A DNA stretch of 64,000 nt from a virus (taxonomy: Duplodnaviria; Heunggongvirae; Uroviricota; Caudoviricetes): positions 1 through 64,000 of IMG/VR virus record IMGVR_UViG_2881684137_000004, one strand, 5' to 3'. Position numbers and translations under genes: made by a program. A model generated the notes under the pieces. It was not told the DNA's origin. It did not search any database and saw only the letters and a program-made list of their open reading frames with translations. Positions 1 to 17,829 of this stretch are shown here, in pieces. Numbering within the stretch: the stretch's first letter is position 1; the number at the start of each line of letters is the position of its first letter.

Positions 1-1080
1 CTACAGCCTGCTTGTTCCTGCCGTGGTCACCACCGACAAAATCAGCGGCCGTCTCTCGCAATCTTTGTCCTCGATGGTGTAGGCACGCTGGATCGTTCTG
101 ACCGCTTCCAATGCAGCCGCGTTGTCCGCCTGCGCATGAACAGTGGCAATCGTGTCGCCCGCCTTGACGCGGTCGCCCGCTTTCTTGCTCAGGACCAAGC
201 CGACGGCATGGTCGATTTGATCGTCCTTCGACGCCCTGCCGGCGCCCAGCTTCATCGCCGCAATGCCCAGCTGCTCTGCAGCGATCGTCTGCACGATGCC
301 TGTTGATGGAGCGGGTACACGAATTTGCATCTTCGCTTGCGGAAGCACCCGTTCCGGGTGTTCCAACAACGCCTCATTGCCGCCCTGTGCTTTCACGAAA
401 TTGTGGAACAAGCGCAGCGCCGAACCATCCATCAGCTTTTGCTCCACCAATGCGCGCGCCTCCTCCAGCGTGTCCGCTTTGCCGCCGAGCACAACCATAT
501 GCGCGCCGAGCGTGAGCGAAACTTCCATCAGGTCGGAAGGGCCTTCCCCTTGCAGCGCAGTCAGCGCTTCCGCCACCTCAAGCGCATTGCCAATCGCAAA
601 TCCGAGCGGCTGGTTCATATCGCTGATGACCGCAGCGGTGCGGCGGCCAAGCTCAGAGCCGATCGCCACCATCGCTTCGGCAAGCGCTTCCGCTTCAGCA
701 AGCGTCTTCATGAATGCGCCGTCTCCCACCTTGACATCAAGTACAATGCTGTCGGCACCGGAGGCAATTTTCTTGCTCATGATGGAACTGGCGATTAATG
801 GAATCGATTCCACCGTAGCCGTCACGTCACGAAGCGCATACAATTTTTTGTCCGCTGGCGTCAAATCCCCGCTCTGGCCGATCACTGCGACACCAATCTC
901 GTTAACCTGTTCAATAAAACGTTCGCGCGACAATTCTGTCTGAAATCCTTGAATCGCCTCAAGCTTGTCAATTGTCCCGCCAGTATGACCGAGACCGCGC
1001 CCGGACATCTTGGCAACCGGAACACCGACAGCCGCTACAAGCGGCGCAACGACAAGCGTCACCTTATCGGAAGTGCCACC
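1..1080 (-). CDS. pdp: pyrimidine-nucleoside (thymidine) phosphorylase, C-terminal ~359 codons; host gene split by prophage insertion and read in-frame from the recombinase ORF
   Basis: Translation [37 protein letters not shown]...[20 protein letters not shown]...MSKKIA matches Bacillus Pdp from about residue 85 to the C-terminus. GC is about 57% versus about 33% downstream. Stop codon at positions 1-3. Confidence 0.8.
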
Positions 1081-1090
1081 TAAAGACATA
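1072..1090. other. prophage/host junction (att core region), inferred
   Basis: Pdp homology and the high-GC composition both end within codons encoding ...EFMSLGG|TSDKVTL. Host STGG is replaced by phage-derived MSLGG. Confidence 0.5.
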
Positions 1091-2700
1091 AATTCGACTT
1101 CAATGTCTTCTTCTTTGCCATTATATCCAGTATCAAATGCAAATTGACATTGTATCTCACCGTCTTTGAAAATTTCAATTTTATCAATGATCGTGTCTAA
1201 AAGAACTTTTTGACTTATTTGCGGTAATTTGTCAAACATATCAAGAAAACTTTTCATATTTCTTAGTATTTCATCATAAGTGATTTTATCATCCTTTTTT
1301 TCATTTGTTTTTTTCATTATTATCTCCTTTACTCTATTTGCTTCATTTAGTTCTTTTATCAACTGAATTTGATCTTCTTGGTATTCCTTTTTTAAAATTA
1401 AGTAATTTTCATCTTGTTCATCGAGTTCAAATAATAGTCGTTTTATCGATTCCTTACTTTTTTCCAATCTCCTTATTCCCTTGTTAATTTTTTCTAAATC
1501 AACTTTATCATCCAGTTGATTTTTAATCAATTGTTTTTCTATCTTGTCTGTTAAGTTATTTATGTCTACAGTCTTAATATATTCCTTTATTTTTTGAATG
1601 ATAAATTCCTCAATAATATCCTTTTTAAAATTATGATTGTTGCACTCCCTAATTGCATTACGGTTGTAACTACTTGAACAATAATAATATAGATATGGCT
1701 TTTTATTTTTCCTGGTTGAATTTCGAGATATATATTTCAAACCACACTCCCCACAAAAAAGAAGACCTGTTAATAAAAAGTTTGTTTGGTAATGTCTTGG
1801 TGGTGTGATTTTACTAACTCTTAAATCTCTCTTGCTGTTAATTAGTTGTTGCCTTTCTTCAGACCGAATTGCTTCATGCAAACCTTTAGCTATAATTTCT
1901 TTTTCACTGCCTTTTCCACCATATTCCACATAGCCGCTATAAAACTTAGAGAATATTACGTTATGGACAACATCTTTCGTCCAAAGTTCTGAGCAGTTTT
2001 TATGTTGTTTTAGTCTTCTAATGGCTTTGCCATTAGGCCTAAAGCCCAAATTTCTTATTTCTCCTCCGTTTAACCATTTAACTATAGAATAAATTCCATA
2101 TCCCTTTAGATACAAATCTTCAATTTCATAGATAATTGGAACGTCTTCTCTGCTTACTACTATACCTTTATCTGTTCTAATGTATCCATACGGTAAAGTG
2201 CCACCACCAAATTCCCCTTTTTCAGCTTTTGAACGCATCACATCAGAAACCCTCATTGAAATTGTTGCACTTTCTATTTCATCCAATGAAGCTCTTATGT
2301 TTTCCATTAGCTTCCCATATGGATCATTTAAGTTCACCTGCATTTCTCCTGTTGCTGAAAAAATTATTTCGCATTTAGCAGATTCTAAAATTGATCTAAT
2401 TGCTAAGGAATCTTCCGCTTTTCTCGAAAGTCTGTCTCTTCTGTATACGATTAGTTTATTGAAGTAGCCAGCTTTTGCATCACTTAAACATTCTAGTAAG
2501 ATTTTTCTGTCTTTTAATTTGGTTTTTGATGCAGAAACTGCGGGTTCAATATAAATTTTATAAAGAATACCTTCATTCTCTAAAATAATCTTTTCACCAA
2601 GAGACTGTTGCATTTCAATTGAATCACCATGTTCAACTTGTTTGTCAGTAGAAACTCGAATATAAATAGCATAAATTTTGTTATCAGTAATTTCAATCAC
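1081..2700 (-). CDS. large serine recombinase (prophage integrase), ~540 aa part of an 899-codon ORF
   Basis: N-terminal resolvase catalytic motif [11 protein letters not shown] and RDRLSR. Recombinase domain, Cys-rich zinc ribbon (CGECG...YYYCSS) and C-terminal coiled coil. Positioned at the prophage end. Confidence 0.85.
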
Positions 2701-2751
2701 CCCAATATATTTATGTTTTTTGTCTGGACTTTTATGTTCATTGATTATAAC

Positions 2752-2782
2752 AAAAAACGGTAAAGTAATAAACCGTTTTTTG
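2752..2782. terminator. bidirectional rho-independent terminator-like hairpin
   Basis: AAAAAACGGT-loop-ACCGTTTTTT, an A/T-flanked stem upstream of the recombinase gene. Confidence 0.5.
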
Positions 2783-2791
2783 AAAATACTT

Positions 2792-2917
2792 CTATTTTTG
2801 TTTTTTAATAAAGTCTGCTATTAATGATGCTAACAAGTTTTCGATTTCTTCTTTTTTTGTAAGGTCATTTCTTGTATTTTTAATTACTGTGAATTTTTTC
2901 GGAATATTAGTTGCCAT
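2792..2917 (-). CDS. small hypothetical protein (41 aa from internal ATG)
   Basis: RBS AAAGGAAAA precedes ATG (MATNIPKK...). The longer 62-aa form overlaps the upstream gene. Confidence 0.3.
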
Positions 2918-3539
2918 ATGTATTTTCCTTTTCCCTAAATAAGATTTTGACACTATCTTCACAAAATTTTTCGATATCATATGTATAATTTACTTTTTTC
3001 TTTTTTGAATCTATTGATACTCCGATTTTTTTACATTCTTCTCTATTAATACTTGATTTCTTACTTTCAATTGCAAATTGCACAAAATCATTAATATGTA
3101 CGAAATACGTTTCATGCTCAAATGTTTTAGTTTTCTTTTCTTTTTCTCGAAAATTTATAATAAATCCTGGGATTGTGTTATCCTTTTGAGTACTTTCCAT
3201 AAGAGATTTGACCTGTGAGTGTTTAATCATTGGCTGAGATTTTACATTTTCAGGTTTTATCCAAGGTGTTTCAGGATAAAAACTAATTCTATTATCTGAT
3301 GTACTTTTTAATTCAAGCAACCATAAATATGGAGGCTTAAAATGTAGCAAATCAAATGGGTTCGTAGTCATAAAACGTGAGTCAGATCCCCTTCCCCACT
3401 TTGCTGCATCAGCCAATCTTAAAAAATAAAAAGGTAGTTTTTTATAGCTTGCTTTCCAGTTATCTTCAAAAATCTTTCCTTCATTTTTTTTACTCAATAT
3501 ATCACTCCTCATTTTCCCCTGCGGTTCTTCTAATAACAT
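2907..3539 (-). CDS. putative PD-(D/E)XK nuclease, RecU-like Holliday junction resolvase
   Basis: Motif NPFD...LWLLELKST (D...E-x-K), similar to RecU. Likely start at the internal M (RBS AGGGGAAA) near 3512. Confidence 0.5.
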   Translation of the reverse strand: MLLEEPQGKMRSDILSKKNEGKIFEDNWKASYKKLPFYFLRLADAAKWGRGSDSRFMTTNPFDLLHFKPPYLWLLELKSTSDNRISFYPETPWIKPENVKSQPMIKHSQVKSLMESTQKDNTIPGFIINFREKEKKTKTFEHETYFVHINDFVQFAIESKKSSINREECKKIGVSIDSKKKKVNYTYDIEKFCEDSVKILFREKENTYGN

Positions 3540-3717
3540 TAAAATGTTCCATTAATACTTCTTTATTGTCTAAAAGGGCATCTCCATCGTTTGTTTCTAA
3601 ATAATCTTCTCCTGCAAATATTTCTGCTTTTGTAACAGTGCAATAAGTTATTACCTTTCTTTCTTGTGCGTCTGCCAAAAAACTTGAAGCATAAAATTCA
3701 TTATTTATTTTTAACAC
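3502..3717 (-). CDS. hypothetical protein
   Basis: ORF with GTG start and a weak RBS. Confidence 0.3.
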   Translation of the reverse strand: MLKINNEFYASSFLADAQERKVITYCTVTKAEIFAGEDYLETNDGDALLDNKEVLMEHFNVIRRTAGENEE

Positions 3718-3738
3718 CTACTTCTGCGTAAATTGTTT

Positions 3739-6700
3739 TTAAATTACTACTCTATCTTCTCTTACTTTTAAAACTCCTAACTCAGAGATTTCTTCAATTA
3801 GTAGTGTCGTGTGTGGAAACTTGGTATCCTTATAACGGTGAGGTTTGAATTGCGAACCTCTTCTATAACCACAAATGAAAAGTTTGTTTCCTCGTGTGAA
3901 CCAGCTTTTTTCTACAGTAGTCTTCTTCCCATCAGTAGCCACAGATGAAATTTGCTTATTGTAATGTGCAAATTGACCATCATAATACTTAATGTTGACA
4001 ACGCCATCAGGAGTGAGTAGTGACACAGTATGTTTATTTTTATCCTTGTCAAGAACAGTGCCAACGATTGCATCAATTTTAAACTTGGGCTTGTCCACAT
4101 CTCTGAACTTAATTCTTCCTGCAATTACTGGCTTCTCAGGCTGATTCTCGAAATTAACAATTCCATACTTTGCACGATCAATATGAGATAATTCATGAAT
4201 ATTATAATAGAAAGATAGTGAATCCATCTCCCACTTACTAATCGTTCCTGAAGCATGCTTGTCCCACTCATCATCAAATATTTTCTGATTTGTAGATATC
4301 AATACTTCTTCACTACTTAGCCATTCACGAACACCATTCATCAGTTTGTCATATTCTTTTTTAAATATTTTCTCACTAACAACTGGATAACCATCAACAT
4401 AATCAACAATACTTGCATTGGTAAAGTGCTCATTGAAGAACAAACGTGCTCTGTCATCAAGAATATAGAATTTATTCTTAACTTCCTCTTTGAATACTTT
4501 GGTCATTACATATTTGCGAAATTTGAATAGTCGAGAATATAGCTCATGCTCAGGGGGAAGCAATTTCTTTTCAATGATCAAGTTAAAGTTTTGAAGCGTT
4601 AACTTATCTTTGCGTTCATGAATTAAAAAGATAAATTCTTTCATCAGTTGCACTCGTTCTCCAAACGAATCAAAACAACCAGCTTTAATTAGTTGCACCA
4701 TCTGAGACTTCTTAATCAGTCCGGTATTGTACATCCTTTCAATGAAATCATCAAATGAAGCGTATGGTCGATGCTTTATTATAAGTTGGACAGCATCATC
4801 CCCGATTCCAACCAATCCTTTTAGTCCATATACAATTTCTCTGGTTTCGAAATCTGGTTTAAAACCAAAGTGAGCCTTATTGATATTTGGCAAACCAATT
4901 TTCACTCCATGCTGTTGCATATTCCCAATAGCAGAAGCAACTTTACCATAGTCTGTAGCTTTATTCTTTTTATCTTCTTCACTTTCTTCGCCACTAATAT
5001 CTTCTCCACTTGCTGAGTTGACTGTTAGGCAGGCTGTATTCCAGAAAAGCGGATCGTAGTTGTGATAAATATTTAACTCTTGAAGTGCAATAATACTATA
5101 CACAAGAGTGTGAAGAGTACTGAAGCTATATCCGATTTGGCGCTTTATCTGAACATTCCATATGTATTTCAATAAATTTTCTGATGCGTTATTTTCCCTG
5201 CCCTTTTCAAAAAACAATTGCTTAACTTCTTCCAGCACTTTTTTACTTCTCTTTGCTATGGCCTTTCTTAATTTATTAGCTTCCTCAATTGAAAAATTAT
5301 TAATTTGGCTATCCAGGACTATTAACATTAACACTTCTTGAGTATCTGCTACACCATAAATCTTCTTAAGATGGTGTTCCATTAGTTTAATTTCTTCACT
5401 GTTTAAGTTCCATTTATCCAGTTCATCGTACCATTTACTAATATCATTCTTATATTTTACATATAAATCTACTGGCTGCGTTTCTCCTCCATCTGCCATC
5501 AGTCTCATCAAAGAATTGGCAACAGAAGTTTCAAGTATATTCTCCGGTTTAACCTTTTTTGCAGTCTCAACACCAATTTGTGTGTTGAATTGAAATAGAT
5601 CCAAAACTTCTCCCTTTGCCATTCGCTCCCATATCTTGGGATCATCATATGTTAACACATCTGGATGGAAATATTCCTTATATGTATTACGCAAGTTACC
5701 TTTCCATTTTATTTGATCAAACTCCAGAAGCAAATTCATACTTTCTCGAATCTTATCCATTGCTTCAACTGTTAGAAGGTCATATTTAATACCTCCCATA
5801 TACTCGCTATCACCCATAGTGAACTGTGTGATAAATTGTCCATTCGGTGCTTTCATTAAAGCATTTCGTGCAGTTAAATCCTCGTTGTAGATGAAAACAC
5901 CACCTGCATGAATGCTTCGCTTATTTTCAACTCCTTCAATTTGGAGAGCCATTTCTTTTAATAGTGGGTACTTTTCAATTTCATTTATAAATTCTGTTAC
6001 TGGTTTCCTGTCTTCTTCTTCATTTCCATATAAGCAATCGGAAAGACTCCAGTTACTCCCTCTTTCAAAAGGAATGAGAGAGGCAATGTTCATCGCTATG
6101 TCATTATCTATTCCCAGACCTCTACATGACGTTAATACAGCACTTTTAGATTTTTCAGTACCAAAGGTTGCTATGTTTATTACTTTGCGTTCCCCTAATC
6201 TGTTTTTTAGTGCTGTAATAATTTGTTTTCTTTTTCCACCTTCAGAATCGATATCGATATCGGGGTGGTCTGGTCTCGACTTATGCAAGTGACGCCAATG
6301 AGGAAGATTATAAGTTAGTGGATCTACCTGAGTAATATCTAAAAGATAATTGATATAGAATCCAGCAGCACTCCCCCTTCCAGCACCAACAATACTGTTG
6401 CCCCCACAATCATCCCAAATAATATTTATGATCTCTTGAATAGTAACGTAGTATGCCGACATAGATTCACTGAGAGCTTGAGAGATATGCCACAATTCTT
6501 CAAATTCCAAATTAATACGAGCAAGTTTTTCATGAAGACTTTCTGATGTCAGAGTGTTACGTGGAACCTTCTCATCAAATCCATCTTCAATCAGTTTAAT
6601 CAAGTACCTATCTTGATCATCTTCAGAGTATGCGAGTTTCTTAATATATTCATACTTTTCATAAGCTGGTTTAAAAATGTGTCGCACCGAAAAATCAGGA

Positions 6701-7644
6701 AGTTTTATTCTAGGAATTGAAACTGGCTTAAATAGGTCGTAATCTTCTACCATATTGCCAATGAGCATTGTATTGTTTATAGCTTCTTTTGCTTGTTCTA
6801 TAGTGATATTATGTTCATCACAAAGTCTTTCTAACATTTCTTCTTCTGTTTGAACAAAACATGAGGCATAAAAACTCTCGGTTTCCCTGTCTCCTTGCTT
6901 GGAGTTTAAGTATGCACCATGTATAGCTAAATGTTCAGGTCTTAAAAAATGTGCATCAGTGGCAACTATAGTTTTCAACCCATAGGCTTGAGCAATCAAA
7001 ATTGCTTTTTTATTGAAATCTTTTTGCTCTACACTGAAAGAAGGCTGTAACTCTACAAAAAACTTTTCTTTGCCAAATACATCGATACACCATTTCATAA
7101 ACCCATTAATCTTTTTCTTTTGCTCTGTGATTCGATCTGTATCATTTATTTTTTCAGCCTCAATTAATTCTAATGTATGTATCGCTAGTTCAGATCCTAA
7201 GCAAGCTGTTGTTGCGATCAAATGCCCTTTATTTTTACTTACTATTTCAGCAAGAATGTGTTTTTCAGTAGGTACACGTTCCATAAGTCCTGTTTTAAAA
7301 CTTTGGCTCCAGGCAATTGAAGATAACTGTCGCAACTGATCATGGCCTTCTAAATCACAAGCAAGGAGAATAAAGTGTGGGAATTTAGTTACACCTGATT
7401 GGTAGTTATCTCTGACTTCTGATAACGAATCTACCAAGTAAATTTCATTCCCAAGTATTAGCTTAAAATCTTCCTTCATCTCTTTCTTTTTTTTCATTTC
7501 TTTCACTGTTTTTATTGCATTAACATGTGAAGATAAAGCTTCGTGATCAGTTATAGCTAGTCCATTATAGCCTAAGTCAACGGCAGTTTTAAGCAGAGCA
7601 TCAGTTTTATTGATACAATCCAATAAACGGATGTTGCTCCCCAT
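3739..7644 (-). CDS. dnaE: DNA polymerase III alpha subunit (DnaE-type, phage-encoded; cf. SPbeta YorL)
   Basis: 1301 aa. N-terminal PHP domain (GLAITDHEALSSHV), polymerase core, C-terminal OB-fold region. Confidence 0.9.
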   Translation of the reverse strand: MGSNIRLLDCINKTDALLKTAVDLGYNGLAITDHEALSSHVNAIKTVKEMKKKKEMKEDFKLILGNEIYLVDSLSEVRDNYQSGVTKFPHFILLACDLEGHDQLRQLSSIAWSQSFKTGLMERVPTEKHILAEIVSKNKGHLIATTACLGSELAIHTLELIEAEKINDTDRITEQKKKINGFMKWCIDVFGKEKFFVELQPSFSVEQKDFNKKAILIAQAYGLKTIVATDAHFLRPEHLAIHGAYLNSKQGDRETESFYASCFVQTEEEMLERLCDEHNITIEQAKEAINNTMLIGNMVEDYDLFKPVSIPRIKLPDFSVRHIFKPAYEKYEYIKKLAYSEDDQDRYLIKLIEDGFDEKVPRNTLTSESLHEKLARINLEFEELWHISQALSESMSAYYVTIQEIINIIWDDCGGNSIVGAGRGSAAGFYINYLLDITQVDPLTYNLPHWRHLHKSRPDHPDIDIDSEGGKRKQIITALKNRLGERKVINIATFGTEKSKSAVLTSCRGLGIDNDIAMNIASLIPFERGSNWSLSDCLYGNEEEDRKPVTEFINEIEKYPLLKEMALQIEGVENKRSIHAGGVFIYNEDLTARNALMKAPNGQFITQFTMGDSEYMGGIKYDLLTVEAMDKIRESMNLLLEFDQIKWKGNLRNTYKEYFHPDVLTYDDPKIWERMAKGEVLDLFQFNTQIGVETAKKVKPENILETSVANSLMRLMADGGETQPVDLYVKYKNDISKWYDELDKWNLNSEEIKLMEHHLKKIYGVADTQEVLMLIVLDSQINNFSIEEANKLRKAIAKRSKKVLEEVKQLFFEKGRENNASENLLKYIWNVQIKRQIGYSFSTLHTLVYSIIALQELNIYHNYDPLFWNTACLTVNSASGEDISGEESEEDKKNKATDYGKVASAIGNMQQHGVKIGLPNINKAHFGFKPDFETREIVYGLKGLVGIGDDAVQLIIKHRPYASFDDFIERMYNTGLIKKSQMVQLIKAGCFDSFGERVQLMKEFIFLIHERKDKLTLQNFNLIIEKKLLPPEHELYSRLFKFRKYVMTKVFKEEVKNKFYILDDRARLFFNEHFTNASIVDYVDGYPVVSEKIFKKEYDKLMNGVREWLSSEEVLISTNQKIFDDEWDKHASGTISKWEMDSLSFYYNIHELSHIDRAKYGIVNFENQPEKPVIAGRIKFRDVDKPKFKIDAIVGTVLDKDKNKHTVSLLTPDGVVNIKYYDGQFAHYNKQISSVATDGKKTTVEKSWFTRGNKLFICGYRRGSQFKPHRYKDTKFPHTTLLIEEISELGVLKVREDRVVI

Positions 7645-7761
7645 AGCAGTATGGCAATGAAGGCCAATAAAATTAATACACAGTGTTTATACACATCCTT
7701 TCAAAGAACAATACAACCTAAAGTTAAAATATGATACAATCCTACATAGGAGGGCTGAGAA

Positions 7762-8370
7762 ATGTTAAATGTTAAAATACAAATTACCGATGTTTCTAAA
7801 GGACTGAATTCTGAAATAGAGCTATCTGAAGCAGACAACCTTTCAAAACTAGTCATTATCCAAAATGTATTTAAATTATTTGGAGTAGATAACAACATAA
7901 TGGATACTGTAAATACATTTAATAATGCTGGAAAAGCTTATAAATCGTTTTTTGAAAAAGTAAAGCCAATAGAACCTATCGAGCCTGTAGTAAAAGATAA
8001 TAAGATCATTGCTACTGATTTAAAGGAATCTCTAATTAAAAATCATGAAAGTTTAAAAAATACTTACAAATCAAAGGATGACTCACCTGATTATTATCGA
8101 ACAGGAATAAAAGTAGATAGTAATAGCAGCCCAAGGTATAAACTTCGTTATAAATGCGATAAGTGTCACGATAATGGAATACACTATGTTTATGCGAATT
8201 CAAAATTTACATGGTGTCATTCGTGTGATCATAAACTGATAGTGAAACCTGCAATTCCTAAATATCACAGGACAGTCGTTAAACAAGAAGAAATCAATGA
8301 AAGTTATAGAGATAGTCTTGGAAATTTTTTCATAGCTGGAAACTATAGAGACACTAGTTTAAATTGGTAA
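7762..8370 (+). CDS. hypothetical Cys/His-rich protein (plus-strand moron)
   Basis: RBS AGGAGGG. CDKCHDNG...CHSCDHK zinc-binding-like motif. Followed by a terminator. Confidence 0.6.
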   Translation: MLNVKIQITDVSKGLNSEIELSEADNLSKLVIIQNVFKLFGVDNNIMDTVNTFNNAGKAYKSFFEKVKPIEPIEPVVKDNKIIATDLKESLIKNHESLKNTYKSKDDSPDYYRTGIKVDSNSSPRYKLRYKCDKCHDNGIHYVYANSKFTWCHSCDHKLIVKPAIPKYHRTVVKQEEINESYRDSLGNFFIAGNYRDTSLNW

Positions 8371-8423
8371 GATATTGAAAACTAAATTTAATTGTGAGAT
8401 ACTTATATAGTCATGTTCGATTC

Positions 8424-8459
8424 TTTTTTAGCTCACTCAGGGTTCAAGTGAGCTTTTTC
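8424..8459. terminator. bidirectional rho-independent terminator
   Basis: TTTTTT-AGCTCACT-loop-AGTGAGCT-TTTTT between convergent genes. Confidence 0.65.
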
Positions 8460-8475
8460 TATGTATTTTATTTAT

Positions 8476-8796
8476 TCAAACCGCTTTTTCAACAGATTTG
8501 TTTTTTAAAAACTTGAACATAATATTATTTTTTTCCATCCAGATTTCAATTTCTGAACATTTTTGCAGCCTATGCTTATCAACAAATCTCATAGGCAAGG
8601 AAATTAATCCTCTTGAATCAATTAATATGCCAATATTAGAACCAGTGTTTTGAATTGTGAAATTATCAAGATGATTTCCTATTCTGATTCTGTCCCCTTT
8701 TTTTAAATTGCTTTTTATTAAGTAGTTCATCGGGATGCTGATTCTTATACTTCCTTTGTCTTCAAAATGAATAGTTTTTGTGATCAAATTCATCAT
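8476..8796 (-). CDS. putative SpoVT/AbrB (MazE-like swapped-hairpin) domain protein
   Basis: GSIRISIPMNYLIKSNLKKGDRIRIG resembles the AbrB/MazE beta-hairpin DNA-binding motif. Confidence 0.4.
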   Translation of the reverse strand: MMNLITKTIHFEDKGSIRISIPMNYLIKSNLKKGDRIRIGNHLDNFTIQNTGSNIGILIDSRGLISLPMRFVDKHRLQKCSEIEIWMEKNNIMFKFLKNKSVEKAV

Positions 8797-8842
8797 CTCC
8801 TCTGTTGAATAACATCTTTATGTTTCTTTTTTGTATTTCACT

Positions 8843-9085
8843 TTATTCAATTAATAGTCCAGTGACAATAACATTTTTTTCTGTAACCTTCACAATAACA
8901 TCATCCTTCTTGAGGATATTCTCTAGAACTTCCTCTGTAAATATGTATTCTATTCCATTAATAGTGTAAACATTGTTTAACACTGGACTGATTGACCTAA
9001 CCTCGCCATTGTTGAAACATTTTGATACAAAAGCGTCTACAGTTGAATCCATTGGTTGCTCTTTTATCTTCTTAGTTTTTGCCAA
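8843..9085 (-). CDS. hypothetical protein
   Basis: ORF consistent with operon orientation. Confidence 0.5.
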   Translation of the reverse strand: MAKTKKIKEQPMDSTVDAFVSKCFNNGEVRSISPVLNNVYTINGIEYIFTEEVLENILKKDDVIVKVTEKNVIVTGLLIE

Positions 9086-9800
9086 TTACACTCACTCCCT
9101 TTTTAATATGATACTCCTTGAATCCTTCATTACTTATCTCAAGGCAATTTAATTGATAACCATAGACGCAACCTCCATCAATCCCAATTTTATCTTTTCC
9201 AAACCATATATCAGGTGAATTATGCAGATGGAATGCAGGGGTATGTCCGAATATTACTAACTTGTTTAAATTAGTTGGTTGATTAAGAAAACTATTCCTA
9301 ATCCATAGAAATTGATCATGGGATTGGTCTCTCCAGTTTGAAACATTTGGGTCTATACCTGCATGAACATAAATGAAATTTTCATCTTCGTAATAATATT
9401 CTGTTGATTCTAAAAACTCCAAATGATGCCGGTAATGCAATGTTATGAATTTCTTAGTTTCTTGTGATAGGTTATAGTCATATCCATTTTCAAACCAGTT
9501 TGTTCCTATGTAACTTTCAATAGTAAAGAATCCACCGTTTATTAAAAAAAGTTGTTCATTGCTGTTGCTGAGATAGTCAATAAACATCTGATCATGATTA
9601 CCTCGCAAAATTATCATATTATATTTATTTTTCATTTCTATTAGTTTTTCAATAACCTGTCTACTTTTAAAACCTCTGTCACAGTAATCACCAAGAAGAA
9701 TTAATTGATCCTGCTCTGGTTCATAGTTTATTATGTCTAATAGTGAAACAAACTCATCGTAGCAACCATGGATATCTGAAATTACTATTTTTCTTCTAAT
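9072..9800 (-). CDS. calcineurin-like metallophosphoesterase (Ser/Thr phosphatase / Ap4A hydrolase family); probable non-ATG (ATT) start
   Basis: LRGNHD motif in the ATG-initiated ORF (9072..9635). Motifs I/II (ISDIHG, LLGDYCDRG) lie in-frame upstream with no ATG/GTG/TTG. RBS AAAGGAG sits 8 nt before ATT at 9800. Confidence 0.55.
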   Translation of the reverse strand: MRRKIVISDIHGCYDEFVSLLDIINYEPEQDQLILLGDYCDRGFKSRQVIEKLIEMKNKYNMIILRGNHDQMFIDYLSNSNEQLFLINGGFFTIESYIGTNWFENGYDYNLSQETKKFITLHYRHHLEFLESTEYYYEDENFIYVHAGIDPNVSNWRDQSHDQFLWIRNSFLNQPTNLNKLVIFGHTPAFHLHNSPDIWFGKDKIGIDGGCVYGYQLNCLEISNEGFKEYHIKKGVSVIGKN

Positions 9801-9895
9801 TTGAAAAGCTCCTTTGTTCTTTATAATAAGGTTTCAGATATGTATTTTCTATTAATCTTTATAGTATAGATATAAATTATAAATGTCAATATGTT

Positions 9896-10408
9896 TTATT
9901 TCTTTACTCTTTTATACACTCCAAAGATTAAATCGTAAGACTTGGTATCTTCTTTATAAATAGCTTGATATGAACTGATTTCATAATCATCATGATCATA
10001 ATCTGGGAAAAATTTGTCACCTTTGAAAGAGTGATTAATATGAGTGAGATACAAGTAATCTGCAAAAGGTAGAAACTGTTTATAAATATCTGCTCCTCCG
10101 ATAACAAATACTTTTTTGTTATGAAAAGATTTTTGACATAATGAGATTGCTTGTTCAATAGAATTAACGACATGACATTCAGGGTATTTATTAGATGCCG
10201 TGTTAGTTTCCCTGGTTAGAATAATGTTAACTCTGTTAGGCAATGGTCTTCCAATTGAATTAAAAGTTCTTGAACCCATAATTACAACATTACCAGACGT
10301 AATTTCCTTAAAATAAGCAAGGTCTTCGGGAATTTTCCATGGAAGTGAATTGTTGTGATCCCCTATTAAATTATTTCTGTCTACAGCCGCAATAAGAGCA
10401 ATTGCCAT
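9896..10408 (-). CDS. dfrA: dihydrofolate reductase
   Basis: [16 protein letters not shown]...LPW...IMGSRTF...IGGA, classic DHFR motifs. Confidence 0.9.
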   Translation of the reverse strand: MAIALIAAVDRNNLIGDHNNSLPWKIPEDLAYFKEITSGNVVIMGSRTFNSIGRPLPNRVNIILTRETNTASNKYPECHVVNSIEQAISLCQKSFHNKKVFVIGGADIYKQFLPFADYLYLTHINHSFKGDKFFPDYDHDDYEISSYQAIYKEDTKSYDLIFGVYKRVKK

Positions 10409-11196
10409 CAGATAGCTACCTCCATTTTAATTGAGGGATGGCTCCGATAATTTAATAGTTTAAAATCATCAACTGTAAAATCGTAAAAATCTCTTATTTC
10501 GGGATTAATCCATAATTGGGGTGCATTGTAAGGGTTTCTATTAAGCTGTTCTTTTATCGGTTCAAAATGATTTTCATATAAGTGCACATTGTTAATATAA
10601 TGTTTAAAATATCCAACTTGTAAATTTGTCACTTGTGCAATCATGTGAACTAATAATGCATACTGTGCTGTATTAAAGCAAACACCCAATCCCAGATCTC
10701 CTGAGCGCTGAATAAGAGTGCAATTTAATTTCCCATCCGACACATCCCAAATTGTCTGGAGTGCACATGGTTGCAATACCATATCGTCCAAATCTTCAAG
10801 ATTCCAAAGAGTCATTAAATGCCTTCTTGATTGTGGATCGCTTTTAAGTCCTTCAATTAGTTTATCGATTTGACGATATTTTTTCACCTGGTATCCATAG
10901 GCTTTTCCGATAGTAAAATCTTCTCTCATCCATTCATTCCACACTTTTACGCCCATATTTTGTAACAGTCGAACATCATTACTTTGATATACATAGATCC
11001 AAAACAATTCTTTAAGCAAAGTTTTAAAAGAAACAAACTTGGTTGTTAGGATAGGAAATTCTTTTTGAAGGTCGAACTCCATTAACTTTCCAAAGATTTT
11101 TTTTGTGGGAATTCCTGTTCTATTATTATCATAGTAACCTTTATTCAGCACTTCATTTAATAGTGCTAAGTATTGCGTGTCTGCATCATTACACAT
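10408..11196 (-). CDS. thyA: thymidylate synthase (ThyA type)
   Basis: RTGIPT...LQPCA..Q (active-site Cys region). 262 aa. Adjacent to DHFR. Confidence 0.9.
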
Positions 11197-11266
11197 TTCT
11201 ACTATCAGCCTCCTATAATGTTTAGCACAAAAGAGGACATGTAGTCCTCCCTTATACTATTTTATA

Positions 11267-12019
11267 TTATTTTTTCTTTTTTTGTCGTTGGATTTCTTTT
11301 TCAATCAGTGGCTCTGGTGCAACCCATCCTTCTGGTTTGATAATTTTTCCGTGTTCGTTGTATCGAGGGTAACCATCCGCATGCAGCTTGTTCATATTAG
11401 CTTCATGGACGATATTAAAGATTGGATCAGGACAAGTGCCAAGGATGGTAAAGTCACCTTTATTGAAATAGGAAATATCAGTGCATGAGTCGATTTGACC
11501 AGTTAAAACGTCAAAATAATTTCTTGGGTATGGTTTGACTACTTGTTTATGGAAAGATTGAGACAGTCTTAATCTAAACTCAGTATACAGTGCATTAAAC
11601 TCATTTTCATTAAATGAAGTTGCATGTAATGCTTCGATTAATTCCTCTGCGATAAACCCTGTTCTATTTAAAATCATCTCTTTTGACATAGGAGTTGGGT
11701 TATCATTCATTGGATATTTGAAAGCTTTATGGAATTCACGAACTTTTTCAAATTCAGTATTAACTTGATCTCTTTTAACTATTGTATCAGTTTTTCCGCG
11801 AAATTTTCTTACTTTAACAGATTCAAGTAATGACACATGAAACTCTTTTACTCTTCGCACATCTTTATGATCAAAATATGTAACTAAGATTAAACCTCGT
11901 TCTTTTAACTGCTTGATAACACCTTTTTTCTTCAGTGGTCTAATCCAAATGCTGCTTTCAACTTCCCATGCCGTTTTTTTCCCCATACTATGAAATTCTC
12001 CTTTTATTCTAATTTTCAT
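11267..12019 (-). CDS. putative all-alpha NTP pyrophosphohydrolase (MazG / dimeric dUTPase-like) domain protein
   Basis: FHKAFKYP...RTGFIAEELIEALHA resembles the MazG/HisE EExxE metal-binding helix. Sits in the nucleotide-metabolism cluster. Confidence 0.45.
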   Translation of the reverse strand: MKIRIKGEFHSMGKKTAWEVESSIWIRPLKKKGVIKQLKERGLILVTYFDHKDVRRVKEFHVSLLESVKVRKFRGKTDTIVKRDQVNTEFEKVREFHKAFKYPMNDNPTPMSKEMILNRTGFIAEELIEALHATSFNENEFNALYTEFRLRLSQSFHKQVVKPYPRNYFDVLTGQIDSCTDISYFNKGDFTILGTCPDPIFNIVHEANMNKLHADGYPRYNEHGKIIKPEGWVAPEPLIEKEIQRQKKKK

Positions 12020-12063
12020 GTTTAAAAAGCATTGATTTTATTGAGTTTTTTGATTTACTATTT

Positions 12064-12831
12064 TTATGTATTTTGATTATCACCAATTATTTCCACTATA
12101 TATTGCGCCTTTTTGTTTTTTATAGTTGAAATAAGTATTTCGCTAACACCATATTCTTTTGCAAGCTTCACATTGCTGATTCCTGAAAGGGATTTTCTAT
12201 AAACTGCTAAAACTTGCTCGTCGTTTAATTTTCTCAATCTTTGTCTACCATCGTTTTTCAGCCTTTGATCTTTTAACATTTGTATATGTTCTTTTGTAAC
12301 CATTGACTCAAATACAGGAATAAGATGTTTCCAGTTGCTTTTATTCCTCACTCTTTTTGCTGAGCCAGGCTTCATATTGAATTTCTTCACTATGTATTTA
12401 ACACTTCTGTCGTGCAACCAAATATCTAAAACATCATCATCAGTCAAAATTGCATTCCCATTATTCTCTCCAGTTTGCACACCTTCAAATGCTCCGGTTT
12501 CCGATGCGTGTTTCATATTATAGCTTTGATCGCACCATTCCAAATTTGCATAGTGATTGTTTGTTTTATTTCTGTCTATATGATTTACAACATCATATTT
12601 ATCTGGATCTGGATTATGAACAAACAGTTTAGCAACTAATCTGTGGATTTTATACTGCTTGTTAGACAGGTTAACGATTTCATACTCATGTATTTTCAAT
12701 TGATTTTTAAGAACTCTGCCTGTACTATTATTCTTCGCTCTACCAAAATTACTTACACTGTATGTATGACCAAATTTATTAGGCAGAACACTGATTTCAG
12801 CAACATCTTTCCAAATTTCTTCTTCAATCAC
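12064..12831 (-). CDS. HNH homing endonuclease (NUMOD4/HNH_3 with C-terminal helix-turn-helix), free-standing downstream of nrdF
   Basis: HRLVAKLFVHNPDPDKYDVVNHIDRNKTNNHYANLEW motif. Start overlaps the nrdF stop. Confidence 0.8.
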   Translation of the reverse strand: MIEEEIWKDVAEISVLPNKFGHTYSVSNFGRAKNNSTGRVLKNQLKIHEYEIVNLSNKQYKIHRLVAKLFVHNPDPDKYDVVNHIDRNKTNNHYANLEWCDQSYNMKHASETGAFEGVQTGENNGNAILTDDDVLDIWLHDRSVKYIVKKFNMKPGSAKRVRNKSNWKHLIPVFESMVTKEHIQMLKDQRLKNDGRQRLRKLNDEQVLAVYRKSLSGISNVKLAKEYGVSEILISTIKNKKAQYIVEIIGDNQNT

Positions 12832-13886
12832 AGTTCATCAAAACCATTATTATCACTTGTTTTCGAATATTGACGTGACTTATTTTCAAAGAAATCAGTT
12901 TTACCAAGATTCAAGTTTTCATCGCTAAAAACTCTGATCCACGGCATTGAGTTTTCACTTACTCCATCATACACTGGAGAAAAATTCAGCATGCCAAGGC
13001 ATTTATTAGCTCTGTATTCGATGTATTCGCTCATTTCATCAATATCTACATCAATACCATTAAGAACGAAGCGAGACCACTCAGTCTCTAACTCTACTGC
13101 TCTTTTAAACAAGTTTTGCACATAAACCTCAAATACTCCGTCCTTATTAATTTCTGGATATTCACTTATGATTAACTTGAGAAGTAAAGACATAAAATAG
13201 CTATGTGCGAATTCGTCTTTGTTAATATATGAAATCATAGTAGATGTTTTTACCATCTTCTGATTACGAGCAAGGTTGTAGAAAAAGGCAAAGGAAGAAT
13301 AAAAATTGATACCTTCTAGTACAATCGATGCTGCAATTGAATTGCATAGATTAATCGGTGTAGGATTATTCTTAAACTCCTCATAGATATCGATGATCAG
13401 ACTGTTCCGTTCATAAATTTCTTTACGAGTTCTAGCCATATCAAAAGCTTTATTTTGAGATTCAAGTTTCTCAATAGATGACAACACATACGAATAACTC
13501 TGGTTATGAATTACTTCTTGATCCTCAATAACAGACAGTACCATTCTGGCACTAGAATCACTCAGATAGTCCTTCAAGACGCTAAGATAGTTTGGCTGTA
13601 CTGAGTCAAGGATAGATAGTAGCCCAATAATGTTCAGAAAGGATTTTTGTTCGAGTTCAGATAAAGTCTTCCATTGCTTTGCATCATCAATCATAGGGAT
13701 TTCTTCTGGTCGCCAGAAGTTGCTAACTAGGTTTTTGTAAATTTCATAGAATTGTGTGTACTTAATATCGTTCCAGTTCACAATTCCACTCGACTTGCCT
13801 CCAATCAGGAAGTCTGATTTATTTGGAGCAGAAACATCTAAAAATCTTGCTTTACTAAGCGGTTTATTTAAGTTCAAACTTATCAA
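12828..13886 (-). CDS. nrdF: ribonucleotide reductase class Ib beta subunit
   Basis: NWN...NFWRPEEI, ferritin-like di-iron helices. 352 aa, apparently uninterrupted. Confidence 0.9.
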   Translation of the reverse strand: MISLNLNKPLSKARFLDVSAPNKSDFLIGGKSSGIVNWNDIKYTQFYEIYKNLVSNFWRPEEIPMIDDAKQWKTLSELEQKSFLNIIGLLSILDSVQPNYLSVLKDYLSDSSARMVLSVIEDQEVIHNQSYSYVLSSIEKLESQNKAFDMARTRKEIYERNSLIIDIYEEFKNNPTPINLCNSIAASIVLEGINFYSSFAFFYNLARNQKMVKTSTMISYINKDEFAHSYFMSLLLKLIISEYPEINKDGVFEVYVQNLFKRAVELETEWSRFVLNGIDVDIDEMSEYIEYRANKCLGMLNFSPVYDGVSENSMPWIRVFSDENLNLGKTDFFENKSRQYSKTSDNNGFDEL

Positions 13887-14331
13887 TCTCCTTCATTATC
13901 TCATCTATGTAATATAATACTTTGTTCTCTTGTCCATTCAATGGAGACTGCTCTATTTTCAAACTTAATTCCTGAACATTGATACTATGTCTTTTCAAAT
14001 GATATTTTATTTCATCGACTGCTCTGCAATAGTGCATCCATTGCGTTTCACCTGTTCCAAATACAAATGTCATGGGAAAATGAGTCTTATTATCCTTCAA
14101 GTGATAAGAAAGAAATTTTCTCATTCTGGCAGGCAGTTTACCATTTCCCCAAGTGTAAGATCCGATAAGCAGAATATCGGTATCAGCCACTAATTCCTCT
14201 AAGTTAGATTCTTGAGAATGAAGATTGACAGAAGAGACGATACAGCCTCTTCTTATCAATTCTTTTTCGATGATGTCAGAAACTAACTTTGTATTGCCAC
14301 TCATTGAAGCATAAAGAATTGCCACCTTCAT
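13864..14331 (-). CDS. nrdI: NrdI-like flavodoxin
   Basis: MKVAILYASMSGNTK (FMN phosphate loop) and LLIGSYTWGNGKLP. Lies between nrdE and nrdF. Confidence 0.7.
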   Translation of the reverse strand: MKVAILYASMSGNTKLVSDIIEKELIRRGCIVSSVNLHSQESNLEELVADTDILLIGSYTWGNGKLPARMRKFLSYHLKDNKTHFPMTFVFGTGETQWMHYCRAVDEIKYHLKRHSINVQELSLKIEQSPLNGQENKVLYYIDEIMKEIDKFELK

Positions 14332-16610
14332 TACGAAGAGCAGCTTTCACAAGCCTCAGCGATATCAATCGAGGTCGATCTAACATAGTAGGTTGTTTTA
14401 CAACCTTCAGACCAGGCAGTCATGTGAATACTCAATAAATCTTTAGCTTTAATATCGTTTTTAACATAGATGTTAAAACTCTGAGATTGATCAATGTTTC
14501 GCTGTCGTGCCGCATTTTGCCTAACACTCCAAATTTGGTCAATCTCGTGTGCTGATTTATAAAACCAAGTTGTCTTGGAGTTTAGACTTGGGACAGTAAC
14601 AGGAATTTTATAGTTTTTCTTTTCTTCGTAATAGAGTTTATTAAAAACCGGATCAATTGAGGCTGTGCCATTAGCAAGTAATGCGGTACTGCCATTAGGT
14701 GCAACAGCCATAAGCCAACCATTTCTCATTCCCTGGCTCATAACCTGCTTTTTAAGCGCTCCCCAATCATGACGGTCATTGGTTTTATAATTTCTTCTCT
14801 CGAAGTATTTTCCAGTATTCCATTCTGAACCTTTATAAAGCGGATACGAGCCTTTCTCAATAGCTAGGTCAGAACTTGCTTTAATTGCATAATAAGCAAT
14901 TTCTTCATAAAGTTTATCGGCAAATTCTACAGCCTCTTCGCTTTCCCATCTAATACCTTTAATAGCCAAAAGCTCATTCCAAGAGAAGGTTCCCATTCCG
15001 GTTGATCTGTAATTTATATTACTCACTTGAGCTTGAAGGACTGGGATTGTGTTTTGATCGATAACATTATCAAGCATTCTCATCTGGATAGGAATTAGTC
15101 TACTTAATACATTGTCAACCACAGCTCTGCCAAGGTGGATACTTGATAGATTGCAAACAACCATATCCCCTGGCTTCTTGTGAATAATAATTTCTCCATC
15201 TTTAATATATTGCTTAGTGACAGTTGTTGGAGATTGATTATTTACGACTTCAACACACAAATTACTTGAGTAAATCATCCCTGCATGCTTATTAGGATTG
15301 GCACGATTAACAGTGTCACGATAGAACATATATGGAGTTCCAGTTTCAAGTTGGGAAACCATAATACGTTTCATGATGTCGATTGCCGCAACTTTATCTT
15401 TATTCAAATCGTTACAACGAACGCATTCTTCATATCGCTCTCTGAATTCTCCGTTTCCTTTTTCATCATCAAAAAAATCTTCAAGGCACCAACCCATAAC
15501 ACTTTTTACTTCGTGAGGATCAAAAAGATACCAGTCCGCTCTTTTCTCAACCTGCTCCATGAATAAATCTGGAAGACAAACTGCTGTAAAAATATCATGC
15601 GCTCTCTGTCTCTCATCACCATTATTTAGTTTTAAATCAAGGAATGACATAATATCTTTGTGCCACACATCCAAGTACACCGCGACCGATCCACTTCTAG
15701 TTCCTAACTGGTCAACTGATACTGCGGTGTTATTAAGCTGCCTAATCCACGGAATAACACCTGAACTGACATTTTTAAATCCTTTAATATCAGAACCTCT
15801 GCTACGAATTTTACCCACGTACGCGCCTATTCCACCGGAATTTTTTGATAAGTTTGCAATATCTGTATTAGAATCATATATTCCTTGCAAACTGTCTTCA
15901 ATAGTATCAATAAAGCAACTAGACAATTGACCATAAGACTTGCCAGCATTACTGAAGGTTGGTGTAGCCACAGTCATGTATTGGTTCGACAATGCCCAAT
16001 ACGCTTCTTTTACTAGTTCCATTCGCTTCTCTTTCTCTTCATCAGACATGAGAACGAGAGCAATGGTTAGATATCTCTCTTGCGGTAGCTCATAAATTTC
16101 TCCTGCATATCCTTTTGCAAGATATCTATCCACCAATGTCTTTAGGCCAATGTATGTAAATAGATAATCTTTCTCCGGTTCTATGTATGAATTGGCTAGT
16201 TTTATTTCTTCATTAGTATATTTTTTCAAGATGGTCTCTGAGTAGATACCCATTTCTCCAAGCTTTTTGAGAATCCCATAGTAGCTACCATATTTATCCC
16301 CAGGATCATATGAACGATTGTATCCTGCCTCTTTATAGAGTCTTTTCAGATATAGTCTAGCAGCCACATGTGTCCATTCCGTCTCGGATGTTGTAATGTT
16401 ATCCAAAGCATTGAGGACAAGTTTATTGCTAATTTCAGATGCTTTAATTTCTTTCTGAGAAAGAATAGATTTAATTGTTCTCTCACTAAGATTATCCGAT
16501 TGAAGATTAGGAAAATCGGACATAACTTTTTCTACATGCCTCACTAACCTTTGTTCATCGAATTCTAATTTCTGAATCTGCGACTTTCTGTCTTTTAACA
16601 CTTGTGTCAA
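14331..16610 (-). CDS. nrdE: ribonucleotide reductase class Ib alpha subunit
   Basis: 759 aa. Catalytic NLC.E region and C-terminal CESCSS redox Cys pair. No intein or intron apparent. Confidence 0.9.
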   Translation of the reverse strand: MTQVLKDRKSQIQKLEFDEQRLVRHVEKVMSDFPNLQSDNLSERTIKSILSQKEIKASEISNKLVLNALDNITTSETEWTHVAARLYLKRLYKEAGYNRSYDPGDKYGSYYGILKKLGEMGIYSETILKKYTNEEIKLANSYIEPEKDYLFTYIGLKTLVDRYLAKGYAGEIYELPQERYLTIALVLMSDEEKEKRMELVKEAYWALSNQYMTVATPTFSNAGKSYGQLSSCFIDTIEDSLQGIYDSNTDIANLSKNSGGIGAYVGKIRSRGSDIKGFKNVSSGVIPWIRQLNNTAVSVDQLGTRSGSVAVYLDVWHKDIMSFLDLKLNNGDERQRAHDIFTAVCLPDLFMEQVEKRADWYLFDPHEVKSVMGWCLEDFFDDEKGNGEFRERYEECVRCNDLNKDKVAAIDIMKRIMVSQLETGTPYMFYRDTVNRANPNKHAGMIYSSNLCVEVVNNQSPTTVTKQYIKDGEIIIHKKPGDMVVCNLSSIHLGRAVVDNVLSRLIPIQMRMLDNVIDQNTIPVLQAQVSNINYRSTGMGTFSWNELLAIKGIRWESEEAVEFADKLYEEIAYYAIKASSDLAIEKGSYPLYKGSEWNTGKYFERRNYKTNDRHDWGALKKQVMSQGMRNGWLMAVAPNGSTALLANGTASIDPVFNKLYYEEKKNYKIPVTVPSLNSKTTWFYKSAHEIDQIWSVRQNAARQRNIDQSQSFNIYVKNDIKAKDLLSIHMTAWSEGCKTTYYVRSTSIDIAEACESCSS

Positions 16611-16767
16611 TCTATCAATCTCCTTATCATTTATTTGATCAACCTCATCCCAAACCGAGGCATTTTCTCTCGTTGATCATGTGTGCTCCCCACTATCGTC
16701 GTGTTTAACCTCAACTCATTAGAGTCGACATAACTTATCTGAGCACCTTGCCCTTTACATAATTTAC

Positions 16768-16941
16768 TTATAGAGCTGTTTTAACTACACCTACAATAGT
16801 ATTTGCAGAAAGCATGTTTCCATCAATTGTAACGAATTCAAATCTGTTATCATTAAGTTCTGTTGCTAGTTTTGCAACATCAACGTTAAATACAGGAATG
16901 TTAGCGCCGCTTTTTAAGATAATATTGTATTTAGTCCCCAT
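16768..16941 (-). CDS. small hypothetical protein (57 aa), below the 60-aa ORF-track cutoff
   Basis: RBS GGGGAGAG followed by ATG. MGTKYNIILKSGANIPVFNVDVAKLATELNDNRFEFVTIDGNMLSANTIVGVVKTAL. Confidence 0.35.
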   Translation of the reverse strand: MGTKYNIILKSGANIPVFNVDVAKLATELNDNRFEFVTIDGNMLSANTIVGVVKTAL

Positions 16942-17020
16942 TCTTATCTCTCCCCTTATTTTTATATTTTTTCATCCCAAATAAATTTACAATTTCATAC
17001 TATTTTTTGTTTAAAAAATC

Positions 17021-17395
17021 TCAATGTTTCTCTAGCCTTTTGTTAATGCTTTTTAAGCTTTCAGCTATTGATTTTGAAGTTTGCTCTGTCTGTGTAGGAA
17101 AAGCAGTCCATCGCCAAATCAGTCCACTCCCTAATAGCATCGACTGAATTTTATCAATACTGTTGCCATATGCTACATCAATAATAGATATTACTGGAGA
17201 ATAATTATGGATCAGGTTTTCATCGTAAGTATTATTATAATATTCCAACTTTGAAATGAAATTTTCTCTCTCATTGATAATAATCTCCGGCTTTTCAAAA
17301 CCTTCCATTTTAACAAGTACCCCAATAAATCTTGTATCGTTTTTCAATGCTTCATGAATAACAGAATTCAATTGCTCCTTATTCATTTTCATCAC
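17021..17395 (-). CDS. hypothetical protein
   Basis: ORF, operon orientation. Confidence 0.5.
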   Translation of the reverse strand: MMKMNKEQLNSVIHEALKNDTRFIGVLVKMEGFEKPEIIINERENFISKLEYYNNTYDENLIHNYSPVISIIDVAYGNSIDKIQSMLLGSGLIWRWTAFPTQTEQTSKSIAESLKSINKRLEKH

Positions 17396-17430
17396 TCTCC
17401 TCTAATTCTACTTTATAATTCCTACAAACA

Positions 17431-17829
17431 CTAGAAACTTCGTGGTTTCTCCAGTTGTTTAACAATAGATTTCAGAGTCTTGACAACTAGTTCTGAAGAT
17501 GTTTGCGCCTGATTTTGAATCAAAAAGTTGTTGATACTCTTGTTTAAATCATATTCTAATTTAGTTTTCTTAAATTTTTCTTCTAGTTCTGAAAATGTGT
17601 TTCCATAGACCGCTGCCGCTATCTTTGAGTAAGAATTAATTATCTGAAGTTTGTCATCAATATCATTTAAAAGACAATCCAATCTTGCCAGATCAGATAC
17701 TTTCAGAATAGAAAACTGCTTTACTACAAATCCATCTTTGTCTGTTATAAGTAGTGAAATGTATTTGGCTTTTTTCTCAGTCGCTTCTTTCATAACTTCC
17801 ATTAATTCATTTTTAATATTGATTTTCAT
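17431..17829 (-). CDS. hypothetical protein
   Basis: Start moved to the internal ATG with RBS AGGAGA (MKINIKNE...) to avoid overlap with the upstream gene. Confidence 0.45.
   Translation of the reverse strand: MKINIKNELMEVMKEATEKKAKYISLLITDKDGFVVKQFSILKVSDLARLDCLLNDIDDKLQIINSYSKIAAAVYGNTFSELEEKFKKTKLEYDLNKSINNFLIQNQAQTSSELVVKTLKSIVKQLEKPRSF

Follow-up and report, generated by a model that had tools for sequence, protein, structure and literature searches.

The stretch analysed here, referred to as the window, comprises 64,000 nucleotides of a Caudoviricetes virus record (IMG/VR IMGVR_UViG_2881684137_000004, positions 1 to 64,000) and begins with the junction between a prophage and the bacterial gene pdp, which encodes pyrimidine-nucleoside phosphorylase (Pdp). 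Positions 1..2700 on the minus strand are occupied by a single open reading frame (ORF) of 899 amino acids (aa) with a GTG start at 2700. The N-terminal part of this ORF is a large serine recombinase (LSR), the phage integrase (Int), and the C-terminal part is Pdp. Pfam domains of both families were found in it, which bears out the initial annotation of an LSR ORF that runs in frame past an attachment (att) junction into Pdp. In the Pdp part, Glycos_transf_3 matches aa 537-762 and PYNP_C matches aa 803-876; Glycos_trans_3N, the N-terminal helical domain of Pdp, was not found by Pfam in the 899-aa ORF. The nearest intact Pdps to the host fragment are those of Paenibacillus abyssi and P. tarimensis (~70% identity). 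The guanine-cytosine (GC) content is 0.58 in window 1-1000 versus 0.30-0.39 in each 1-kb bin of 1001-64000, and at fine scale it drops from 0.58-0.67 to 0.30-0.37 between positions 1050 and 1090. The window starts exactly on the pdp stop codon, and downstream host DNA lies outside it. An identical 899-aa protein is deposited at NCBI as 'thymidine phosphorylase [Paenibacillaceae bacterium]' (RXZ77926.1), encoded on a 467-kb contig.

The LSR part contains catalytic, recombinase and zinc-ribbon domains and a presumed coiled-coil insertion (Table 1). Residues 241-460 align to the C-terminal domain of the A118 integrase (4KIS), the coiled-coil region included. The R15-V16-S17 motif is invariant across 20 family members, and the LSR of the window keeps all family-invariant residues. 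In the family alignment the conserved ...KIEI.KDG.V... strands finish at ~aa 525, and by this alignment the LSR core is complete ahead of the predicted crossover. In the phage collection, the integrase GP56 of Geobacillus virus E3 (GVE3), a phage of 141 kb, ranks first with 53% identity over 550 aa; the comparison with pdp-targeting LSRs that had been suggested at the outset has accordingly yielded an integrase with the same target gene. The GVE3 alignment passes through the junction, where FMSLGGTSD in the window stands against FISFGGVGD in GVE3, and the latter mimics HSTGGVGD, the phosphate-loop motif of Pdp. SPbeta-family integrases share only 24.6% identity with the LSR, too little for close homology to SprA or SpoIVCA.

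The position of the junction is set by two comparisons. All 120 of the 120 closest Pdps read KHSTGGVGDKT; therefore, the SLGGTS of the window is phage-coded, and host sequence starts at or just past the GAT codon that follows. The initial annotation had split pdp at about codon 85, with host STGG becoming SLGG; the insertion into pdp stands, and its site is moved to codon 89. In four attP sites from relatives (GVE3, L138, L139 and L141), dyad symmetry peaks on a GA dinucleotide with a summed score of 65, compared with 18-45 at the other positions tested, and 14-19 of 25 positions are matched in the individual sites. A sharp dyad-symmetry maximum is expected of the central dinucleotide in an LSR site. 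The window junction maps onto this dinucleotide, which lies directly between phage-specific ACTTCC and host-specific AAGGTG. Because GA forms codon positions 1-2 in both int and pdp, recombination can only give in-frame junctions on either side. The read-through follows structurally from the attP position and is, alone, no evidence of selection for the chimera. The approximate extent of attR in Table 1 follows from the usual LSR att size of 40-50 bp given in a published study (PMC3783163).

The inner phage arm (P arm) varies between phages. In the attR of Paenibacillus tianjinensis (L002 ~11680) the P arm encodes SLPVVLD instead of SLGGVGD, and the window has SLGGTSD; the GA(T/C) centre is constant. 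Within the last part of int, at window 1149-1178 on the minus strand, a sequence resembling a sigma-70 promoter (TTGAAA-18-TACAAT, matching at 10 of 12) points outward into the pdp fragment. It may be due to chance, since the promoter and terminator scan of window 1-3800 gave results no better than shuffled sequence.

The in-frame int::pdp fusion is also found in six other Bacillales lysogens. These are P. tianjinensis (L002, a complete genome), in which host dacF-spoIIAA-spoIIAB-sigF lies downstream and the fusion is likewise deposited as 'thymidine phosphorylase'; a P. urinalis-like strain (P0003/L142); Virgibacillus halotolerans, where the predicted prophage measures 132 kb; a GVE3-like prophage of 142 kb, whose LSR is 93% identical to that of GVE3 and whose host pdp has ~60% GC (L004/L089 and L005 cover this prophage and that of V. 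halotolerans); Siminovitchia sp.; and Paenibacillus pini JCM 16418 (L088 and L090 cover the last two, with P. pini in L090). Beyond pdp, the next host genes in the relatives are a cation-efflux or beta-lactamase-type gene and then dacF-spoIIAA-spoIIAB-sigF. In the P. pini LSR (L090 9932-12678) a frameshift ~25 codons before the junction separates a 523-aa piece from a 403-aa piece with the Pdp part, which may reflect a sequencing error in the draft genome or a decaying prophage integrase. A search with the LSR part among 5.8 billion proteins returned two LSR::Pdp fusions of 919-920 aa besides that of the window. Together with the published GVE3 case, the shared architecture of the six lysogens upholds the earlier proposal that a prophage was inserted in pdp by an LSR.

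The empty site is available for P. urinalis. The empty-site sequence (L143) shares 5084 bp of 100% identity with the lysogen (L142), beginning 13 nt ahead of the GAC (Asp89) codon, and the predicted crossover falls within the attB/attR core common to the pair. The gene order at the empty site is xerD-deoB-punA-punA-pdp-czcD-dacF-spoIIA. This near-isogenic pair excludes an assembly artefact for the arrangement in general and, by comparison, makes one in the window very unlikely. At the level of sequence, window 1..2700 is confirmed as a genuine attR junction rather than an assembly artefact.

The form of the integrase before integration is provided by relatives. From the same protein search came at least 15 integrases in the phage form (653-702 aa); most read ...(F/I)S(L/F)GGVGDTT and then continue into a conserved tail. 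A match of 20-plus bp to host pdp sits in the int ORF of the phage forms. The tail beyond attP is 115-135 aa long in the relatives, and in the 675-aa GVE3 integrase ~120 residues follow the junction motif. Two of five tails match Pfam HTH_26 (Cro/C1-type) above the gathering cut-off of 22 bits (26.9 and 26.8 bits). An AlphaFold (AF2) model based on an 18-sequence alignment has a predicted local distance difference test score (pLDDT) >90 over the helical core (residues ~30-110), and its best Foldseek matches in the PDB are XRE-family regulators and restriction-modification controller proteins, with probabilities up to 0.99 and target-normalised TM-scores of 0.64-0.70. Profile matches and the model together show the tail of the relatives to be an XRE/Cro-type helix-turn-helix (HTH) domain. 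The attP form had been expected to restore a short recombinase C-terminus; this is at odds with the HTH tail of ~115-135 aa in the phage-form relatives. A scan of viral contigs with the single LSR protein gave no matches, and the alignment-based LSR scan gave matches. Two unusual proteins carry the tail in other contexts. P0073 (156 aa, on a 2.4-kb contig) consists of ~95 N-terminal residues of a GVE3-type LSR with the tail attached directly (...RKLED|TTTTKKIK...), possibly by internal deletion or misassembly. P0209 (590 aa) has four tandem copies of the tail-like domain followed by an unrelated C-terminal domain, and the integrase-tail fold therefore occurs outside integrases too.

The reciprocal junction was found in relatives. 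In Anoxybacillus flavithermus (P0071/L003), a 215-aa ORF behind xerD-deoB-punA, with phage lysis genes after it, consists of Pdp 1-89 (...KHSTGGVGD) and the integrase tail (TTTTKKIK...). A second Pdp 1-89::tail hybrid (P0206) is encoded on a metagenome contig. For the phage in the window, the corresponding attL chimera would lie at the prophage end beyond position 64000. A degenerate DNA pattern for KHSTGGVGDTT, aimed at attL prophage ends, gave 0 matches in viral contigs. A tail-profile search of the 5.8 billion proteins gave only 4 matches, none of them the hybrid of this genome, which was also not among the 7 matches of a phmmer search of representatives with the GVE3-type tail.

A full-length, low-GC pdp directly follows int in five of the five phage-form contigs that reach past int (GVE3, L138, L139, L140 and L141). 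The GVE3 pdp encodes 432 aa and overlaps int by 4 nt, and the next gene encodes a 127-aa protein with an LSR-type zinc ribbon. Such a mini zinc-ribbon gene (~100-127 aa) follows pdp in four of the five contigs; the L141 contig ends within pdp. The small protein, of 101-127 aa in GVE3 and in its two distant relatives L138 and L139, resembles the LSR zinc-ribbon domain without the coiled coil, plus terminal beta-strands, and its gene would land in the host deo operon upon integration. Purely as speculation, it could be an integrase accessory or directionality factor. A location of attP inside the phage's own pdp was considered and rejected, because the B' side differs: phage pdp reads GAT AAA ATT AGT... 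and host pdp GAT ACG ACG AC.... Given this difference, the phage pdp should be a poor target for its own integrase. In the GVE3 literature, a pdp of the phage itself is placed downstream of the resolvase, and the lysogen was suggested to rely on the phage enzyme (PMC8303945). An integrated cassette directly behind the truncated host pdp fits this published suggestion. With a replacement pdp in all five phage-form relatives, complementation is a better fit than regulated excision. The 64-kb window itself was found to contain neither another pdp or LSR nor a tail or mini zinc-ribbon gene.

The remainder of the window is prophage (Table 1). In addition to the genes listed, homologues of ribonucleotide reductase (RNR), RecJ, primase and helicase are present, and the DNA-metabolism genes follow a broadly GVE3-like order at 22-40% protein identity. 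By these similarities the phage is a distant member of the GVE3-type group. No close relative of this phage was found in the viral, metagenome and genome collections searched, and neither its P-arm 24-mer nor its LSR protein had matches in metagenome contigs. Searches of the window for tRNA genes and Rfam families gave no matches. A homing-endonuclease-like ORF with HNH_3 and NUMOD4 lies at 12064-12831 (-), where it separates the MazG-like gene from the replication-module genes that come next; such ORFs are typical mobile insertions in large phage genomes. In GVE3 itself, GP69 (L137 9519-13622) is a topoisomerase II gene with an in-frame stop, which is read through according to peptide sequencing by the depositors.

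Table 1. Features of the int::pdp junction and the prophage in the window, and the mini zinc-ribbon genes of relatives.
Feature	Position	Strand	Remarks
Stop codon TAG of host pdp, stop of the 899-aa chimera	1..3	-	ORF listing
Host pdp 3' part, Pdp residues 90-443 (chimera K546-L899)	4..1065	-	~58% GC; alpha/beta and PYNP_C domains
attR site, approximate extent	1040..1095	-	Extent inferred from usual att size
Host B' arm (part of attR)	<=1066	-	Reads TAAGGTGACGCTTGTCG...
Predicted crossover dinucleotide GA	1067-1068	-	GAT codon bases 1-2 (Int D545 / Pdp D89)
Phage P arm (part of attR)	>=1069	-	Reads ...TTTATGTCTTTAGGTGGCACTTCC
LSR core, aa 1-544	1069..2700	-	~31% GC; GTG start 2700
Presumed coiled-coil insertion and last zinc-domain strands, aa ~375-530	~1110-1578	-	Inferred
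Zn_ribbon_recom domain, aa 309-372	1585..1776	-	PF13408
Recombinase domain, aa 185-292	1825..2148	-	PF07508
Resolvase catalytic domain, aa 11-163	2212..2670	-	PF00239, E 7.9e-26
Remaining prophage, >=61 kb	2701..64000	-	30-40% GC; nearly all genes on the minus strand; attL end beyond the window
PolIII-alpha	3739-7644	-	Within the remaining prophage
DHFR	9896-10408	-	Within the remaining prophage
ThyA	10408-11196	-	Within the remaining prophage
MazG/PRA-PH-like gene	11267-12019	-	Within the remaining prophage
Mini zinc-ribbon protein, 101-127 aa	L001 9322-9705		GVE3
Mini zinc-ribbon protein, 101-127 aa	L138 9366-9671		
Mini zinc-ribbon protein, 101-127 aa	L139 9528-9848		

The locus is, with high confidence, best explained as the attR junction of a GVE3-related large temperate phage (>63 kb here, 132-142 kb in relatives) integrated in the pdp of a member of the Paenibacillaceae, with attP located in int. 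In this phage group, attP lies within the integrase ORF. It comes directly after the end of the LSR core, which by then comprises the catalytic and recombinase domains, the zinc ribbon and the coiled coil, and its codon phase matches that of the phosphate-loop codons GGVGD(89) of pdp. Strand exchange by the LSR at the GA of the Asp codon therefore yields two in-frame chimeras, a mechanism to which the comparison with relatives gives good support. At attR, the Int core 1-545 is followed, as in the window, by 354 Pdp residues (Pdp 90-443) and would have lost the tail; at attL, as seen in relatives, Pdp 1-89 would be joined to the former ~120-aa HTH tail behind the host deoB-punA promoter. The host pdp is inactivated, as the chimera lacks the N-terminal domain and an intact GGVGD loop. 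The phage pdp, which is immediately downstream of attP in most phage-form relatives, would enter the host operon at attL. The attP form of this phage, with HTH tail and pdp, may be expected from its relatives, the Int::Pdp' protein may still be competent for excision, and excision would restore an intact pdp.

Several points weigh against this interpretation. The attL chimera, the phage pdp and an intact prophage are predicted for this phage from relatives at 45-55% LSR identity, and a phage pdp is missing from the attL of the A. flavithermus prophage, so that the replacement gene is not universal. The Foldseek matches of the tail have weak E-values (0.15 and above). The support for the junction comes from comparison with relatives, and the 899-aa chimera is a predicted product.

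The large GC contrast at the junction (0.31 versus 0.58), and a source that is possibly metagenome-derived or a draft assembly, with the junction known from assembled sequence, might suggest that a short sequence in common led to the false joining of a low-GC phage contig with a high-GC host contig. Such a chimera is extremely improbable, since the phage and host sequences meet precisely on the dinucleotide that unrelated attP sites predict as the crossover, the same pdp codon is used in the six other lysogens from five genera, and the P. urinalis attB/attR pair displays a clean insertion. The GC contrast itself has a parallel in GVE3, which has ~30% GC and yet is reported to lysogenise a Geobacillus host (PMC8303945). 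The annotation of the ORF as one protein at NCBI, and the presence of a phage pdp beside int in relatives, would also be compatible with a native bifunctional recombinase-phosphorylase carried in the virion genome, with no att junction. This has next to no probability: the phage forms keep int and pdp separate, with a full-length, low-GC pdp; the Pdp part in the window lacks the first 89 residues and has host GC; and host genes directly follow in the relatives.

An element bearing an LSR that splits a protein-coding gene, at a site which in relatives adjoins dacF-spoIIAA-spoIIAB-sigF, invites comparison with SPbeta and skin, in which developmental excision in a terminally differentiating cell would rebuild the gene. 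The gene pdp encodes a salvage enzyme and is not known to have a sporulation-specific role. The nearest relative forms plaques and produces virions (PMC8303945), the relatives carry a replacement pdp, and no sporulation-type control was seen, though none was sought. A developmental role is highly improbable, and the analogy to SPbeta- or skin-like reconstitution drawn at first is not supported, given ~25% LSR identity, a salvage gene as the target and the replacement pdp in five of five relatives. The in-frame chimeras might alternatively be functional, selected products, with integration moving the HTH domain to a host-driven Pdp(1-89)::HTH regulator and Int::Pdp' being specific to the lysogen. 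In favour of this, the HTH tail of the phage forms is conserved and well folded and never departs from the int frame; the ORF is unbroken in both known attL chimeras, the frame is kept through the junction in all seven attR fusions, and mycobacteriophage BPs provides a precedent for integration-dependent protein remodelling (PMC4557955). However, the phase is fixed by the position of attP in the ORF, so the in-frame status needs no selection; the HTH domain may act only in the phage-form integrase; and the chimeric products are predicted from sequence. Selection for the chimeras is considered unlikely. In its fuller form, integration would be a protein-remodelling switch in which the LSR loses its HTH domain and becomes an Int::Pdp' isoform, and Pdp(1-89)::HTH is made from the host deoB-punA-pdp operon, co-transcribed with the phage pdp and the mini zinc-ribbon gene; this is distinctly unlikely. 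If the chimeras did have distinct activities, the system would be a serine-integrase counterpart of integration-dependent immunity, for example through a lysogen-specific nucleoside-responsive regulator or an altered directionality of recombination.

The attP-in-int integration preferred here has its closest counterpart in GVE3. According to secondary sources, the host gene for pyrimidine-nucleoside phosphorylase is interrupted in GVE3 lysogens, with a 23-bp core at the insertion site (PMC8303945), and both attL and attR may give rise to chimeric proteins (PMC13245101, citing van Zyl et al. 2015). The int::pdp arrangement is thus already reported, and the window is a divergent new example of it, real but not new. 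The two phages share a homologous LSR, the same target gene (pdp/deoA) and codon, an attP inside the integrase ORF and chimeric ORFs at the junctions, and each has a large low-GC genome in which the genes of the DNA-metabolism module lie on one strand in similar order. They differ in that the host of the window phage belongs to the Paenibacillaceae and its pdp has 58% GC, in that proteins other than the LSR are only 22-40% identical, and in the P arm, where SLGGTSD replaces SFGGVGD and leaves an attP/attB identity much shorter than the 23 bp of GVE3.

Other known systems share single features with the locus. SPbeta (sprA/spsM), skin (spoIVCA/sigK) and A118 (comK) also involve LSR insertion in an ORF, with excision expected to rebuild the gene, but their LSRs are only distantly related (~25% identity). 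To our knowledge, attP is not inside the integrase ORF in these three systems, and no integrase-host chimera is formed. In lambdoid phage 21 and e14, which insert at icd, insertion in a metabolic gene is accompanied by phage sequence that preserves its function; phage 21 has a tyrosine integrase and replaces just the 3' end of icd, unlike the GVE3 group, whose phages bring a whole separate pdp. Integration-dependent immunity of BPs and its relatives was reportedly described by Broussard and colleagues in 2013. In BPs, attP is inside the repressor gene and immunity depends on integration (PMC4557955). Both there and here, attP lies in a phage ORF, so integration alters the C-terminus of the encoded protein; in BPs, however, a tyrosine integrase acts and the repressor is merely shortened, whereas in the window the serine integrase itself exchanges an HTH tail for a fragment of a host enzyme. 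The 'suicidal' tyrosine integrases of SSV1-type archaeal viruses likewise have attP within the integrase gene, which is partitioned on integration and possibly inactivated (PMC8371274). They belong to another recombinase family and another domain of life, and, unlike them, the LSR core in the window stays whole upstream of the crossover, with only the accessory C-terminal domain removed.

The label 'thymidine phosphorylase' of RXZ77926.1 is misleading, as this protein is an attR chimera in which the host pdp is disrupted. The several natural attP/attB pairs with a defined crossover (the GA of Asp89), in an LSR family from thermophiles and mesophiles, indicate that pdp-targeting LSRs could serve as orthogonal integrases. 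The system also allows a clean test of whether a C-terminal domain swap of an integrase bears on directionality or on lysogeny control. The odd integration site of GVE3 is the hallmark of a widespread group of Bacillales phages, with hosts in Paenibacillus, Geobacillus-type bacteria, Anoxybacillus, Virgibacillus and Siminovitchia, and with a conserved cassette in which an LSR bearing a C-terminal HTH domain and attP within its ORF is followed by a replacement pdp and a mini zinc-ribbon protein.

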